IMG/VR virus record: IMGVR_UViG_3300047547_000492 | Direction: 5' to 3' (one strand) | From: an uncultured virus (IMG/VR IMGVR_UViG_3300047547_000492) | Lineage: Duplodnaviria > Heunggongvirae > Uroviricota > Caudoviricetes | Length of the DNA: 64,000 nt | The notes under the pieces: model-generated | Databases searched by the model: none | Told to the model about the DNA's origin: nothing | Seen by the model: only the letters and a program-made list of their open reading frames with translations | Program-made: the position numbers and the translations under genes | Shown: positions 58,758 through 64,000 of the stretch, one piece after another | Layout of the letters: each line of letters begins with the position of its first letter | Position numbering within the stretch: the stretch's first letter is position 1

Positions 58758-59494
58758 GGATGTCCGCTCAGGTCAGTCGGGCCGTAGGACTCGGGGTCGT
58801 TCATGCACGCCACCAGGATGGACTTGTACTTCTTGATGTATGCCCTCCACGGCATACGTTCGGCCGGCGCGTGGACCATGACGGCGTGGCGCTGCTCCGG
58901 CGTGGGGTCGGTCGGCGGGACGAACTCCGGCATCCAGCTCGGCCTCGGTCTCTCCGGCCGGTCCCAGCCTAGTCTGCCGAGGAGACCGGTCGGCATCTGA
59001 CCGCATCTGAGGCCGGCCATCTTGGCCAGGACCATGCGCCTGGCCATCTCGAGCTCCGCCTTGTGGTACTGGGCCCTGTAGGTAGACACCGGATCGCCTG
59101 GGATCTTGCATCGGTTGTGGGTCAGCTGGGGGATCTCCAGCGTAGACCCGGGCTCGAGGGGGGCGAGCCCGGTCGGAGCGTTGTCAAGCGCCCACCACAT
59201 CAGCCGTTCGGACGGGTAGACCTTCATGAATCTGAACCTCCTCTCGACCACGGTCGCCCTGCAGTGATCCACCATCCACTCCCACGCCTCTGAGGAGGAC
59301 AGGACCCACTGAACCAGCGTAGATCCGGCCCACGCGGCGTTGATCGGACACCCCTCAGCCCCGGCGTGGGCCGCGGCATTCGTCAGCACGAGGCTCAACA
59401 CCATGCCCTGGCGCCAGACGTGCATGTCGGCCAGGTACTTGGCTGACGTCCTGTGGTCATCATCGAGCATCCAAAGATCCAACCCGTCGCTCAT
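58754..59494 (-). CDS. Pyrimidine-dimer DNA glycosylase (DenV-like) family protein
   Basis: LWMLDDDHRTSAKYLADMHV and GDPVSTYRAQY. Confidence 0.6.
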   Translation of the reverse strand: MSDGLDLWMLDDDHRTSAKYLADMHVWRQGMVLSLVLTNAAAHAGAEGCPINAAWAGSTLVQWVLSSSEAWEWMVDHCRATVVERRFRFMKVYPSERLMWWALDNAPTGLAPLEPGSTLEIPQLTHNRCKIPGDPVSTYRAQYHKAELEMARRMVLAKMAGLRCGQMPTGLLGRLGWDRPERPRPSWMPEFVPPTDPTPEQRHAVMVHAPAERMPWRAYIKKYKSILVACMNDPESYGPTDLSGHP

Positions 59495-59586
59495 CTTGTG
59501 TCTCCGGGCGCCTGACCACCTGAGGCCAGACGTTCAACACAGGATAACCCGGCCGGCGCGTCGGTGACACAGACCGCATGATCGTG

Positions 59587-59762
59587 GGGCCCGTTTGAGC
59601 GCCGATCAGCCGAGTCTGGGCCCGTTTGAGCGCCGATCAGCCGAGTCTGGGCCCGTTTGAGCGCCGATCAGCCGAGTCTGGGCCCGTTTGAGCGCCGATC
59701 AGCCGAGTCTGGGCCCGTTTGAGCGCCGATCAGCCGAGTCTGGGCCCGTTTGAGCGCCGATC
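59587..59762. repeat. 31-bp tandem repeat GGGCCCGTTTGAGCGCCGATCAGCCGAGTCT, 5 full copies plus a partial
   Basis: Direct reading; non-coding; no spacers. Confidence 0.97.
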
Positions 59763-59826
59763 GTCAAAAAATTTTGAAAAAGTGGGTCGAAGCGCGCGCC
59801 GATCGTCAAAAAATTTTGAAAAAGTG
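59754..59826. repeat. Duplicated AT-rich element GCGCCGATCGTCAAAAAATTTTGAAAAAGTG
   Basis: Two copies 42 bp apart. Confidence 0.93.
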
Positions 59827-59867
59827 CGCTCATTTCATCGGATATTCCCCTCTGACAAGGAGATCCG

Positions 59868-59975
59868 CAGGATCTTCGATAATCTGAGCAATGCGTAATT
59901 CGGGGATCCTCAGGATCTTCGATAATCTGAGCAATGCGTAATTCGGGGATCCTCAGGATCTTCGATAATCTGAGC
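59868..59975. repeat. 43-bp tandem repeat CAGGATCTTCGATAATCTGAGCAATGCGTAATTCGGGGATCCT, 2.5 copies
   Basis: Direct reading. Confidence 0.95.
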
Positions 59976-60364
59976 GGGTGGTTTGGGGCGAGAGGCGGGG
60001 GGCCACGGTCACGGAGCCGAGCCCCCCGGCACTGCGTTCTCTGAAATCCCGATACCGATTCGTCAGCGGCACACTAGGTGCCTGGTCCGCGACCCCCTTA
60101 ACCGAGGGGTCCATCCGACCGAACGCCGAATTTACGTGGTACGCTTAATTGCGTGGCGTAAACTAGCGTCGAGTTACACGGGGTGGACAGGTGGGGTTGG
60201 GCAGTAGCGACCTTGTATCACAACCTAATCGCTGACGACGATATCGTGCGCATAGTGGGCCAACGAAGGGGTACGAGCTTCCATCGCGCGGAGCGATCAG
60301 GCGACGACTACCGGACCGTTGGACAACCCACGACTGACCATGGGTAGACCGCCTGACAAGCGTC

Positions 60365-60453
60365 TATCCAATGGTTCAGCATGCCGCGCCTACGCTACGG
60401 CCCTTAGGAACATCGGCTCACCTCGTAGGCGCGGCATCCTCAACCATTGGATA
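60365..60453 (+). promoter_or_regulatory. 30-bp imperfect inverted repeat (long RNA hairpin) abutting an RBS
   Basis: TATCCAATGGTT-cagc-ATGCCGCGCCTACG pairs with CGTAGGCGCGGCAT-cctc-AACCATTGGATA. Confidence 0.8.
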
Positions 60454-60464
60454 AGGAGTGCATC

Positions 60465-60608
60465 ATGTTCGCCACCGTCTTCATCACCTGGGCCGCCGGC
60501 GTGGCCCTCGTCCCCGCAGCCCTGACCTACCGGAGCCGTAAGGCTGTCGAGCAGAAGGACCTCCAGACGAACTTCGATCGAGTCATGAACCAGACCGCCA
60601 ACAAGTGA
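60465..60608 (+). CDS. 47-aa single-TM protein
   Basis: TAAGGAG RBS; MFATVFITWAAGVALVPAALTYRSRK... Confidence 0.65.
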   Translation: MFATVFITWAAGVALVPAALTYRSRKAVEQKDLQTNFDRVMNQTANK

Positions 60609-60609
60609 G

Positions 60610-60858
60610 GTGAGCGTGAGAGGGTACATCGGTAAGATCCTAAAGAACGGCGAGGAGGAGTCGTTCAAAGTTATCGACTTCACCGCGGATGAGGTCAACG
60701 GCACCACGGAGGTGTTCGTAAGAGCGGTGTCCCACGACAGAGCCGTGTGGCTGTGGTGGGACACCTTCGAGGGCGACTTCCGCCTCTGCGATGCAGACGG
60801 AGAGGTCGTACCAACCGATCGGGGTGGCTTCTCCATCCGAGATACCGAGAGGGGTTAG
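60610..60858 (+). CDS. Small early hypothetical protein
   Basis: GAGGTGA RBS; its stop codon lies inside ribozyme-like element 1. Confidence 0.65.
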   Translation: MSVRGYIGKILKNGEEESFKVIDFTADEVNGTTEVFVRAVSHDRAVWLWWDTFEGDFRLCDADGEVVPTDRGGFSIRDTERG

Positions 60859-60890
60859 GCTCGGTGCGGCGGCCTCCGGGCCGCGTCCCC
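60844..60890 (+). ncRNA. Pistol-like self-cleaving ribozyme candidate, copy 1
   Basis: ACCGAG-A-GGGG-TTAGG-CTCGGT-GCG-[GCGGCC tccg GGCCGC]-GT-CCCC. Confidence 0.7.
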
Positions 60891-60907
60891 ACAGCGAGAG
60901 GTGTTTC

Positions 60908-61084
60908 ATGCGCGTTGTCATCCGCCACAGGATCTCCAACGGCGTCCACGACGGCTTCGAGGCCCTTCTGATCGACGGATGGGTCTCGAAACACTCCATC
61001 AGCGGCCCATCGCTCGAGAGGGTCGTCACGCAGGTCTCAACGATGTGGTCGGGGTACCCCGTGTACAACGACCTGCTCGGGTAG
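60908..61084 (+). CDS. Small early hypothetical protein (58 aa)
   Basis: GAGAGGTG RBS before ATG 60908. Confidence 0.6.
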   Translation: MRVVIRHRISNGVHDGFEALLIDGWVSKHSISGPSLERVVTQVSTMWSGYPVYNDLLG

Positions 61085-61151
61085 TTACACGCGCGGGCCC
61101 GAGGGTTACACGCGGTGCCCGCGGATCAGCGATGCAGAATATGATCTAGGA

Positions 61152-61205
61152 GCCGGGAGGGGTTAGGCCCGGTGCGGCTCGAGGACCAGTCCTCGAAGCG
61201 TCCCC
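61152..61205 (+). ncRNA. Pistol-like self-cleaving ribozyme candidate, copy 2
   Basis: GCCGGG-A-GGGG-TTAGG-CCCGGT-GCG-[GCTCGAGGA ccag TCCTCGAaGC]-GT-CCCC. Confidence 0.7.
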
Positions 61206-61227
61206 AACAACACGACAGGAGTCCACA

Positions 61228-61794
61228 ATGGCCAAGACCATCGACACGATCGCCACCGCCGCCCTCTTCGCCTCGTTCAAGCCCGAGGCGCTCGCGGAGG
61301 AGCTCGCGGCCCGCAAGCTGAAGCCCGTCGAGGACGTCGGCACCGCGAGCATGCTCCTCGCGAGCGGATGTAGGAGCCTCGACGACGTCACCACGACCGT
61401 CATCAACCTCTCGCACGGCCAGGTGTCCGGCAAGGACATGACCGACATGCTGGCGAAGTGCTTCCCGAACCATCAGATCGGGGACAGGCACGGTCCGCAC
61501 TACCTCAGCCTCGTGCGGACCGGCGACTCGGGCAGCAAGATCGAGTGCCGCTTCCGCGTGGCCAAGCGTCAGCGGGTCGCCAAGACCGAGCCTGAGGCGA
61601 AGGTCGTCGAGGTCGAGCGGACCTACGACCTCAGCTCGCTGGACCCGAAGCACCTCGACAGGATCGTGAAGGCCGTCAAGGGGACGCCCCTCGAGAACCT
61701 GATCGCCAAGTGCCTCGAGACCAAGGTCGAGCCGAAGCTCGAGCCCGAGGTCAAGGTTCATGACCAGGAGGAAGCCGCTCCGGCCGCCAAGTAG
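61228..61794 (+). CDS. Early hypothetical protein sharing the RHGPHYLS domain with 8422-9084
   Basis: CAGGAG RBS; strongly GC3-biased codons. Confidence 0.8.
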   Translation: MAKTIDTIATAALFASFKPEALAEELAARKLKPVEDVGTASMLLASGCRSLDDVTTTVINLSHGQVSGKDMTDMLAKCFPNHQIGDRHGPHYLSLVRTGDSGSKIECRFRVAKRQRVAKTEPEAKVVEVERTYDLSSLDPKHLDRIVKAVKGTPLENLIAKCLETKVEPKLEPEVKVHDQEEAAPAAK

Positions 61795-61804
61795 CCGAGT
61801 GACG

Positions 61805-61852
61805 ACCGGGAGGGGTTAGGCCCGGTGCGGCGGTCCGACGGACCGCGTCCCC
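61805..61852 (+). ncRNA. Pistol-like self-cleaving ribozyme candidate, copy 3
   Basis: ACCGGG-A-GGGG-TTAGG-CCCGGT-GCG-[GCGGTCC gac GGACCGC]-GT-CCCC. Confidence 0.7.
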
Positions 61853-61868
61853 AATCGAGAGGTGTTCA

Positions 61869-62318
61869 ATGAACGATGATGCGGTCCACCCGTTGATCGC
61901 TCTGGCCGTCCGTCTCATGGTCCAGGACGAGTCACAACGAGTAGAATGCGGTCTGATCAACGCTCCGTCGGAGTGCGTCGCGATCATCTCGAAGGCCAAC
62001 GCCATGGAGATGGCCGAGGCCGTGGCGACGAGCGACGAAGACTTCCAGAAGCTCGCCAAACTCGCCGGCGACGAGACGATCTCCGCCCTGATCGACGCGG
62101 AGAGAGCGCGCAGTCCGTTCCTGGACGATGCCGACACGTTCGACATGGACGAGCCCTGGCCCTCGGACCTCGCGGATCCCGAGCCGCTCTGGTCGATGCT
62201 CACGACCTGGGTGCACCACTGCGAGCTGGTCAAGGAGCTCGACGACTCGAGGATGGCCAATGCTGACCGCGGACCGAGGTTCGCCGAGTACATGAAGAGC
62301 GCCCCACTCGTCGACTGA
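61869..62318 (+). CDS. Acidic early hypothetical protein
   Basis: GAGAGGTG RBS; 149 aa, D/E-rich. Confidence 0.75.
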   Translation: MNDDAVHPLIALAVRLMVQDESQRVECGLINAPSECVAIISKANAMEMAEAVATSDEDFQKLAKLAGDETISALIDAERARSPFLDDADTFDMDEPWPSDLADPEPLWSMLTTWVHHCELVKELDDSRMANADRGPRFAEYMKSAPLVD

Positions 62319-62343
62319 ACCGCCAACCCTAGGAGACACGCCG

Positions 62344-62517
62344 ATGGCCGTCGGAGAGAGCAAGAACGCAGGATTCGCGAAGGAGTGTGCGTCGGGATCC
62401 CGCTCCCGACGGTTCGGCAAGAGAGCGAGGACGAGGTCGTTCCGCAGGGAGACGATCCCCGACGACGAGCTCGAATGCGCGGCGTTCGACGACGTCACGA
62501 CGACCGGGAGGGGTTAG
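62344..62517 (+). CDS. Small hypothetical protein (57 aa)
   Basis: AGGAGA RBS; MAVGESKNAG...; TAG stop lies inside element 4. Confidence 0.55.
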   Translation: MAVGESKNAGFAKECASGSRSRRFGKRARTRSFRRETIPDDELECAAFDDVTTTGRG

Positions 62518-62550
62518 GCCCGGTGCGGCTCCCGTCGAGGGAGCGTCCCC
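62503..62550 (+). ncRNA. Pistol-like self-cleaving ribozyme candidate, copy 4
   Basis: ACCGGG-A-GGGG-TTAGG-CCCGGT-GCG-[GCTCCC gtcga GGGAGC]-GT-CCCC. Confidence 0.7.
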
Positions 62551-62568
62551 AACAACGAGAGGTGTTCA

Positions 62569-62943
62569 ATGCCCAAGGTGGACCTCAACGAGATCGCCAG
62601 GGTCTGCTACGAGAACGATCAGGGGGTCGCCTACGCCTACGGCGATCACGCCTGGCCGGCGGGATGCCCGACGGGCACCGACGCGCTCAAGCTCATCGAC
62701 GAGAAGGTGCGGTTCATGGGGTTCGAGCCGGACCACCTCAGGTCGGACGTGTGGAATGCGAAGGAACACTGCCTCCGTCTGATGTCGTATCCGAGGCCCG
62801 CGGTCAAGGTGCCCGACGGCAAGACCTTCGAGGAATGGGCCGATGACGTCGTCTCGGGGAAGGCCGGCGTGTCCGACGGGTGTCTGGCAAGCAGCCTCGA
62901 CGAGTTCGTCAAGCTGAACGAGCGACTCAAACGTTCCGAGTGA
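62569..62943 (+). CDS. Early hypothetical protein
   Basis: GAGAGGTG RBS; 124 aa. Confidence 0.75.
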   Translation: MPKVDLNEIARVCYENDQGVAYAYGDHAWPAGCPTGTDALKLIDEKVRFMGFEPDHLRSDVWNAKEHCLRLMSYPRPAVKVPDGKTFEEWADDVVSGKAGVSDGCLASSLDEFVKLNERLKRSE

Positions 62944-62989
62944 CTCGGAGGGGTTAGGCCGAGTGCGGCGGTCGAGAGGCCGCGTCCCC
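62943..62989 (+). ncRNA. Pistol-like self-cleaving ribozyme candidate, copy 5
   Basis: ACTCGG-A-GGGG-TTAGG-CCGAGT-GCG-[GCGGTC gaga GGCCGC]-GT-CCCC. Confidence 0.7.
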
Positions 62990-63007
62990 AACAACGAGAG
63001 GTGTCAA

Positions 63008-63361
63008 ATGTCGAGTGTGAAGTCGGCCGTTCAGGCCGCGATCGATCATCTGCGTGGCCGCGGCGTCGGGATCCCCGAAGACATGATCGATGACGCCGTC
63101 AACGTGGCCGAGGAGGTCGAGTCCGACGCAAACGAGGACGCCTGGGACGCCTGGGATCCCGACGAAGACCCGATGTACGCGGGCGATGGAACGTGGTTCG
63201 CTCAGGAGGACTCGGCCCTCCGCGCCTCCGGACCGGGCAACCCCCGGAACCTGCCCTGCCCGACCTGCCGCGAGCCCAACCGCCTGACCCCGGCCGACCG
63301 CGCCAGGGGCTACCAGTGCGACAGCTGCGCGGACAAGGTCGAGCGCGGGTGGATGGAATGA
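63008..63361 (+). CDS. Early protein with acidic middle and C-terminal Zn finger
   Basis: GAGAGGTG RBS; CPTC...CDSC. Confidence 0.75.
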   Translation: MSSVKSAVQAAIDHLRGRGVGIPEDMIDDAVNVAEEVESDANEDAWDAWDPDEDPMYAGDGTWFAQEDSALRASGPGNPRNLPCPTCREPNRLTPADRARGYQCDSCADKVERGWME

Positions 63362-64000
63362 GCCCCGAGACGAAACAGTGGGTCCGGGACGTGGCCTACG
63401 CAGCGTGCTCGGACCTCGAGAGGATGGACAAGGGCGTCGCGTTCGGGCGCACGTCCTGGAGCGTCGCCATCAACACCCGATGGCCGGCCGATGCGCCCAC
63501 CAAGTTCGTGGAGCGCCAACAGATTGTGTTCGACACCCTCAACGAGCTGTACGCTGAGAGCGCGTTCGTCACGTTCCAGGACGGCACCGTGATGACGAAA
63601 TTCGCCCTGAGTCGGATCCCCCGGGTCCCGCGCCTCAACTCCAGGCGCGGTCAGGCCGTCCGACTCGTCGCCTGGCTGATGCACCACGGCGGGCCGATGG
63701 CCCGGCACGAGGTCGTGCGCGCCGCGCTCAGGCGAGGGGCGCACCTCGGGTCCTCCAGTCGCCCCTCGCACGCGTGGTTGCTGTCGTGGTCCGGCGGCCT
63801 GAAGGGTGACGGGAGGCTGTGGGTCGGGAAGCGCATCCAGACCATCCGGCACGCCGACGGGACGTGCCGGGTGCGGTTCGGCTACCAGCTGTTCTTCCCC
63901 GGACCAAAGATCGAGCTGGCACTGAACGACGGGTTCGTTCCCGACGATCGAGACCACGCCCAGCTCGAGAAACTCATCGTCGACAACGCTCACCTGCTCG
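63358..64000 (+). CDS. Partial hypothetical protein (runs off the window)
   Basis: ATGA-coupled start; frame open to the end of the window. Confidence 0.6.
   Translation, partial: MSPETKQWVRDVAYAACSDLERMDKGVAFGRTSWSVAINTRWPADAPTKFVERQQIVFDTLNELYAESAFVTFQDGTVMTKFALSRIPRVPRLNSRRGQAVRLVAWLMHHGGPMARHEVVRAALRRGAHLGSSSRPSHAWLLSWSGGLKGDGRLWVGKRIQTIRHADGTCRVRFGYQLFFPGPKIELALNDGFVPDDRDHAQLEKLIVDNAHLL

Follow-up and report, generated by a model that had tools for sequence, protein, structure and literature searches.

A pistol-like element without P1 precedes small genes of an uncultured phage and may cut its polycistronic message

INTRODUCTION

RNase III cuts the early transcript of phage T7 at serial intercistronic structures to give gene-sized mRNAs, and the sites cut by this host protein are long imperfect hairpins with a duplex of roughly 20 bp. 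Clustered hammerhead ribozymes flank genes in prophages and cleave both in vitro and in Escherichia coli, and it was proposed that they cut long phage transcripts to gene-length mRNAs (Perreault et al. 2011, PMC3088659). The idea of phage-RNA processing returns in a 2019 review, which treats the purpose of most bacterial and phage self-cleaving ribozymes as open (PMC6765202). Ribozyme processing of phage polycistronic RNA is already a published idea. In the present study, we analysed a 64,000-nt stretch of DNA from an uncultured virus of the Caudoviricetes (IMG/VR record IMGVR_UViG_3300047547_000492), hereafter the window, in which five copies of one short element precede small genes on the + strand. 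The element matches the core of the pistol ribozyme and lacks its P1 hairpin, and it probably self-cuts the message that contains it.

In the canonical pistol ribozyme (RF02679), a purine at position 32 together with G33, G40, C41, and G42 lines the active site, an A32G variant stays active, and the pseudoknot comprises six pairs (PMC6154101). RiboJ consists of a ribozyme, a hairpin, and a ribosome site and gives every gene that it insulates the same 5′ end (PMC6206723). In fungal RNA viruses, intergenic hammerheads cut a few nucleotides before a start codon, the 5′ ends having been confirmed by rapid amplification of cDNA ends (bioRxiv 10.1101/2024.05.16.594327).

RESULTS

Five direct copies share a pistol core

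Five direct copies of the element lie on the + strand, which is the gene strand, within 60844–63010, the last copy ending at 62989. A 20-nt core pattern matched five times in the window against 0.22 matches expected, and none of 100 shuffles reached five; a covariance model built later recovered the same five copies at 53.8–67.4 bits, the next best match in the window scoring 12.7 bits. The initial annotation of this locus had described repeated elements, each followed by a leader and a start codon, and these analyses confirmed the five copies.

Each copy has the layout 5′-PKa(6)-N-P2a(4)-UUAGG-PKb(6)-GCG-P3 hairpin-G/U-P2b(4), in which PKa and PKb are the complementary strands of a pseudoknot (PK) and N is A in the window copies. 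GGGG pairs with CCCC across the PKa/PKb helix, so that the fold is an H-type pseudoknot. P2 is GGGG/CCCC in all five copies, whereas the P3 hairpin differs in sequence in all five yet retains its pairing in each. Copies 3 and 4 have the PK strands ACCGGG/CCCGGU, and copy 2 has GCCGGG/CCCGGU; copy 1 (ACCGAG/CUCGGU) differs from copies 2–4 in a compensatory manner, and the strands of copy 5 (ACUCGG/CCGAGU) are compensatory as well.

Rfam at its gathering threshold gave no match in the window. In a permissive Rfam scan, all five copies aligned to positions 23–68 of the 68 positions of the Pistol model at 17.5–24.2 bits, and the aligned portion comprised P2, the UUA-purine-G segment, the PK strand directly before G-C-G, P3, and the 2-nt G-U junction. 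The purine at position 32 and G33, G40, C41, and G42 were present in pistol register in every copy, as was the exact 2-nt G-U junction between P3 and P2b, and the 6 nt immediately before GCG are paired with the 5′ strand as a 6-bp pseudoknot whose register is the canonical one. The sequence of the elements is homologous to the pistol core. Because the P1 hairpin and the A-rich linker are missing, all five copies fall under the Rfam threshold.

One canonical pistol ribozyme was picked up by the pattern search. This sequence, L016, aligned to positions 1–68 at 49 bits, above the threshold, and is located at 125–197 of a 60-kb phage contig, ahead of a Shine–Dalgarno sequence (SD) and an ATG. Its core consists of GGGG, UUAGG, CCCGGU, and GCG, and the loop strand of its P1, ACCGGG, matches PKa in copies 3 and 4 at every base. 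Given this identity of core and pseudoknot, the window form reads as that ribozyme minus the P1 arms and linker, supporting a pistol-derived origin of the elements, and L016 is a possible candidate for the ancestral form of the P1-less family. Full-length Rfam alignments were also returned for three other relatives (L011, L021, and L026); these scored below the threshold and placed P1 on unrelated coding sequence, and they were rejected.

Copy 1 spans 60844–60890 (Rfam Pistol 21.2 bits; covariance model 64.8 bits), with PKa at 60844–60849, A at 60850, P2a at 60851–60854, UUAGG at 60855–60859, PKb at 60860–60865, GCG at 60866–60868, P3 at 60869–60884, the predicted G/U junction at 60885/60886, and P2b at 60887–60890. 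Copy 2 (61152–61205; 18.1 and 53.8 bits, respectively) has a P3 of 23 nt with a bulged A and its junction at 61200/61201. Copy 3 (61805–61852; 22.1 and 67.4 bits) has P3 at 61830–61846 and the junction at 61847/61848, copy 4 (62503–62550; 24.2 and 63.0 bits) has them at 62528–62544 and 62545/62546, and copy 5 (62943–62989; 17.5 and 66.3 bits) at 62968–62983 and 62984/62985.

Leaders behind the copies

Every copy closes with G-U-CCCC-A, after which a short leader containing an SD leads to an ATG. The start codons behind copies 1–5 are at 60908, 61228, 61869, 62569, and 63008, and the distances from the U to the start are 22, 27, 21, 23, and 23 nt. The leaders accordingly occupy 60886–60907 (copy 1, 22 nt, UCCCCACAGCGAGAGGUGUUUC, SD GAGGUG), 61201–61227 (copy 2, 27 nt, SD AGGAG), 61848–61868 (copy 3, 21 nt), 62546–62568 (copy 4, 23 nt, UCCCCAACAACGAGAGGUGUUCA), and 62985–63007 (copy 5, 23 nt). 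The core CGAGAGGTGT is common to copies 1, 3, 4, and 5, and the leader of copy 2 differs, containing ACGACAGGAGTCCACA with AGGAG. Folding of the leaders was weak, with minimum free energies (MFE) of −2.5, −0.3, −0.8, and 0.0 kcal/mol for copies 1, 3, 4, and 5, the four copies scored; copy 2 was removed by the P3 filter. The initial annotation was thus right that the leader is unstructured in the copies scored and that copy 2 carries a separate one. Its start distance of about 16–22 nt becomes 15–21 nt when counted from UCCCCA, and of the likeness that it saw among four leaders the common core stands, whereas the leader that it quoted occurs exactly only in copy 4.

All three helices covary among phage relatives

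One core pattern was run over three collections, and a match was counted as a true element when it had at least five of six pseudoknot pairs and at least four closing P3 pairs. The viral contigs of IMG/VR gave 43 pattern matches, including 34 true elements (30 unique), and metagenome contigs gave at least 126 matches with at least 28 true elements. Contigs of cellular genomes gave at least 121 matches; among the matches listed, two were true elements, both on one 9-kb contig from a metagenome bin, and 10 of 121 had five or more of the six PK pairs. Complementarity of PKa and PKb centred on two to three of six pairs in chance matches and on six of six in the true set. Among the matches listed, the motif is phage-specific, and the distinct relatives come almost entirely from phage contigs.

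When 61 distinct sequences were aligned to the model, 99.3% of cells were in standard pairs, compared with 71.9% after column shuffles and 39–58% with slid partners, the relatives having been retrieved with patterns that fix most core bases including the GU junction, the set having been filtered on PK and P3 pairing, and the alignment having been fitted to a model that contains the pseudoknot and P3. By helix, 100% of PK cells and 98.3% of P3 cells were paired, and double changes were found in 13 of 17 pairs (four of six in PK, seven of seven in P3, and two of four in P2).

P2 was examined by four scans with an altered P2a in which matching and non-matching P2b were both permitted. In all nine true elements with an altered P2a, P2b had changed to match (seven GGGA/UCCC, two AGGG/CCCU), and none was uncompensated, whereas the background matches of these scans held both compensated and uncompensated forms; the P2a variants GGAG and GAGG gave no true element in the scans. 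All three helices thus covary. Position 40 was likewise left unconstrained in the search, and it was G in all 34 true elements, whereas 23 non-elements had G in nine, A in seven, C in four, and T in three. The pistol-derived core, the covariation, and a G40 that stays constant when left free all favour the ribozyme identity put forward in the initial annotation.

The elements are intercistronic

Placement was assessed in 62 filtered unique elements; one member of this set, L069, looks like a chance match, and window copy 2 was excluded owing to its P3 bulge. In upstream frames that are open over 27 codons or more, the stop lies, relative to the first base of the element, at −3 (27 cases), −4 (6), −2 (5), or +2 (6), or at the UAG of UUAGG (19). 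An SD and a start codon follow the predicted cut in 56 of the 62 elements, at 21–100 nt (median 50). Together with the window copies, these data support a strictly intercistronic placement. In about half of the relatives, the two bases before PKa are AG, even where a TAA or TGA stop lies one base further 5′, and this was not seen in the window copies.

Short leaders like those of the window occur in ten elements, and nearly the same leader (AACAACGAAAGG) was found in one other phage. In most other relatives, the cut site and the SD are separated by one or two hairpins. In many of them (L005, L018, L031, L041, and others) a conserved hairpin of the GCUGACAnnnUGUCAGC type lies directly 3′ of GUCCCC, and a second hairpin (GCAGGCGUGAGACCCUGC) often comes next, before the SD. 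These hairpins may stabilize the 5′ end of the cut mRNA.

In the window, an open reading frame (ORF) of 82 aa (60610–60858, +) ends at the UAG of UUAGG in copy 1, and an ORF of 57 aa (62344–62517, +) ends at the UAG of UUAGG in copy 4. Their C-termini, TERG and TGRG, are encoded by the 5′ strand of the element and GGGG-UUAG (60844–60858 and 62503–62517), so that the protein C-termini and the RNA fold use the same bases; the same overlap was found in 19 of the 62 relatives. One ORF stops 13 nt before copy 3, a 68-nt spacer lies before copy 2, and the gene behind copy 4 (62569–62943, +, 124 aa) ends in a TGA that shares the first base of copy 5.

Among the other genes led by an element, those behind copy 1 (60908–61084, +, 58 aa), copy 2 (61228–61794, +, 188 aa), and copy 3 (61869–62318, +, 149 aa) are followed by the spacer, by copy 3, and by the 57-aa ORF, respectively, the last of which has no element of its own. 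The gene behind copy 5 (63008–63361, +, 117 aa) is overlapped through ATGA by the next gene (63358 onward), which also has no element. Searches of PHROGs and Pfam with the nine small genes of this region, including those behind copies 1 and 2, yielded no family above the curated cut-off. On the gene map of the window, replication genes are on the + strand, tail and head genes are on the − strand, and the small genes of no known family lie beyond a repeat-rich divergent region; it is from this position and from the small genes of unknown family that the operon may be called early.

Element-bounded blocks are reordered in related phages

Five other phage records (50–73 kb, one with terminal repeats) carry three to five copies each within 2.3–4 kb, and no copies were found outside these clusters in the five genomes. 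They have approximately 51% G+C compared with 61% here, and no DNA polymerase or early proteins common to them and the window phage were detectable. In a gene-family map of five related phages (L064–L068, corresponding to G002–G006), the blocks bounded by elements were directly observed in differing order, for example element-L-element-B-A in G002 versus element-B-A-element-L in G004. Family B stands directly behind an element in five of five phages, and families K, L, P, and Q do so in two of two each. Orthologues of family B without an element in front occur in two further contigs, L374 and L375 (72% and 55% identity). Taken with the map, these element-free orthologues indicate that the element travels with the gene behind it and is dispensable.

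The reordering fits the suggestion of the initial annotation that the repeats are modules for cassette swapping, which they may mark or mediate. In the window phage, breaks in the DNA contigs from four runs fall on the repeated core and on tandem repeats; these contigs are uninformative on cassette swapping, and the nearest record, G001, ends in a 31-bp tandem array and does not include the element region. When the 4-kb region and single elements were compared with GenBank phages by BLAST, no element was recovered; the top match, MT835574.1, was rejected as a chance GC-rich match without UUAGG or GUCCCC.

Other repeats near the operon

The divergent region (59587–59975) that separates the structural genes of the − strand from the small-gene operon of the + strand contains three repeat sets, namely a perfect 31-bp tandem array of 5.7 copies (59587–59762), a 43-bp array of 2.7 copies (59862–59975), and a 31-bp A/T-rich block duplicated at 59754 and 59796. 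Both public contigs and the nearest record stop in this region, which is possibly a regulatory region or an iteron-bearing origin. Further downstream, at 60365–60453, a 30-bp inverted repeat (93% complementary, 29-nt loop) lies at the head of the operon and ends just 5′ of the AGGAG and ATG (60465) of its first gene; this gene is thus preceded by a long hairpin and not by a pistol-like element, and the hairpin may be a site of processing or translation control.

The sequence GTTACACG occurs three times, all on the + strand, at 60173, 61084, and 61105, the last two within a direct repeat of approximately 21 nt in the 68-nt spacer before copy 2. It is statistically weak, with three or more matches in 6 of 100 shuffles, and these sites may belong to an operator or an internal promoter region.

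DISCUSSION

The best reading of these results, and one that we consider reasonably probable, is that the elements self-cut a polycistronic phage message. Considering the pistol core and its junction, we propose the following scenario. During transcription of the + strand operon, each element would take up its fold and cleave at the G/U junction, and the ribozyme, still folded, would stay at the 3′ end of the upstream piece with a terminal 2′,3′-cyclic phosphate. The downstream piece would begin 5′-OH-UCCCC, and its leader would extend for 21–27 nt up to the SD and AUG. The internal pieces would be 315, 647, 698, and 439 nt long with one or two genes apiece, and the ribozyme, leader, SD, and gene or genes would form a cassette unit. 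In this scenario, the P1-less form would cut, would do so in vivo, and may thereby alter the stability or translation of the products.

The initial annotation had also suggested that 5′-OH ends resist decay. RNA ends with a 5′-OH resist RNase E-type decay. In Bacillus subtilis, however, the 5′-OH end left by cleavage of the glmS ribozyme is a target of RNase J1 (PMC3328962). Any protection of the cut message would thus depend on the RNases of the host.

Several results weigh against self-cutting. Model positions 1–22, that is the P1 hairpin and the conserved A-rich linker, have no counterpart in the window copies; the Rfam alignments begin at position 23 or 24, the flank 5′ of the element is coding sequence up to the stop codon, and the canonical linker AUAAAuA is replaced by a single A, or by A, U, or G in relatives. 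No conserved substitute for P1 was seen in the upstream flanks of the relatives. In a canonical pistol ribozyme, activity falls substantially when P1 is broken by mutation (Harris et al. 2015, PMC4604425). None of the P1-less copies reaches the Rfam gathering score of 34.5 bits, with the relatives attaining at most 32.9 bits. With a tool that does not handle pseudoknots, the nested-fold energies of the five copies were no better than those of shuffles (z from −0.48 to +0.89), and the minimum-energy nested fold differed from the proposed one in two of five copies. The fixed patterns and the filter build in some of the pairing percentage as well as the invariance of the core, with the exception of G40 and P2. 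Furthermore, the elements stand ahead of only five of nine gene starts in 60.4–64 kb, orthologues of family B occur without them, and among the listed runs carrying the window DNA there was no RNA run.

The lack of P1 and the linker, together with the strong fall in canonical activity upon P1 disruption, supports the view that the elements have a pistol-descended fold without a useful rate of self-cutting and serve as a structured intercistronic module. Possible roles of such a module include a 3′-end protector of the upstream cistron, a barrier that uncouples translation of neighbouring cistrons, and a target of an RNase or protein of the host or the phage, with cutting perhaps dependent on a partner. 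Covariation proves the fold and not catalysis, and because G40 is also structural, taking part in a base triple (PMC6154101), its invariance is not decisive for catalysis. However, a mere pseudoknot needs none of the scissile surroundings, and purine 32, G33, G40-C41-G42, and the exactly 2-nt G-U junction are kept here, even in phages whose DNA polymerase and early proteins have no detectable counterpart in the window phage; the canonical pistol L016 moreover occupies the same kind of place, before an SD and AUG. We therefore regard a non-cutting module as unlikely, although worth keeping in view. Repeats acting solely as DNA, whether as promoters or operators for phage or host polymerase or as recombination sites, would agree with conserved 20–30-bp blocks ahead of genes and with a cassette order that changes at the elements in relatives. 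All copies are nonetheless on the coding strand, the sequence match is to a ribozyme core, and compensatory changes in three helices, including the pseudoknot, argue for an RNA fold and not for a protein-binding DNA word. No sigma-70-like promoter or intrinsic terminator was found in 59400–64000 by a scan that excludes phage-specific promoters, which also counts against a DNA site, and this explanation appears highly improbable.

If the elements were selfish repeats spreading within and among phage genomes, each with a relic ribozyme of no benefit to expression, their several copies in otherwise unrelated-looking phages and their absence before orthologous genes in some relatives would be accounted for. 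Six genomes or regions, however, contained no degenerate copies (24 of 24 elements had an intact core), placement between stop and SD was strict and always in sense orientation, and the P3 of the window copies has fully diverged in sequence and still pairs. Intact cores, strict placement, and a diverged but paired P3 point to purifying selection on each copy, and selfish spread is thus quite improbable.

The window form and the canonical pistol ribozyme share P2, P3, the 6-bp PK, the UUA-purine-G segment, G40-C41-G42, the G-U junction, and the association with phages (RF02679; PMC4604425, PMC6154101), and they differ in that the window form is without P1, has one nucleotide in place of the A-rich linker, and has a free 5′ PK strand instead of a hairpin loop. 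As with the window elements, several self-cleaving motifs bracket single genes or short blocks in the prophages with hammerheads; these belong to another ribozyme class, and a strict spacing of stop, ribozyme, and SD as in the window is not reported in the accessible part of that account (PMC3088659). The RNase III sites of T7 resemble the elements in being serial intercistronic structures, whereas in the window catalysis would fall to the RNA itself, leaving a 5′-OH and a cyclic phosphate at the ends; the helices of the element, at 4, 6, and 6–10 bp, are not T7-type long duplexes. The order ribozyme, hairpin, SD in RiboJ is the same as in many relatives of the window element, but RiboJ was engineered from a hammerhead-type satellite ribozyme, and the leader of the window copies is short and contains no hairpin. 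The intergenic hammerheads of fungal viruses differ in belonging to eukaryotic RNA viruses, in ribozyme class, and in the mode of translation initiation. No P1-less pistol and no fixed layout of stop, ribozyme, and SD were found in full-text searches, whose scope excludes most subscription journals and the papers and supplements on pistol discovery and structure. The P1-less pistol form and the strict stop-ribozyme-SD placement thus appear to be new here.

A more detailed scenario, which we put forward tentatively and hold to be possible at best, is that a natural minimal pistol without P1 and linker fronts a portable cassette of ribozyme, leader, SD, and gene, that cutting is timed by upstream translation, and that the conserved 25–30-nt core serves as homology for the swapping of early genes, each gene bringing its own mRNA 5′ end. 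The element starts at the upstream stop, so that a terminating ribosome would cover the 5′ PK strand and cutting could follow upstream translation.

This family provides a clean test case, since five cuts are predicted within 2.2 kb and the size of each product follows exactly, the stop-ribozyme-SD layout recurs in fixed form in dozens of phage contigs, and natural variants with and without the element stand before orthologous genes. If the P1-less form cuts, the pistol consensus of three stems and a pseudoknot would be too narrow, annotation based on thresholds would miss a whole sub-family, and phages would possess a very small natural ribozyme-plus-leader module like the hand-built RiboJ. 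If it does not cut, a ribozyme fold would have been reused for another role.

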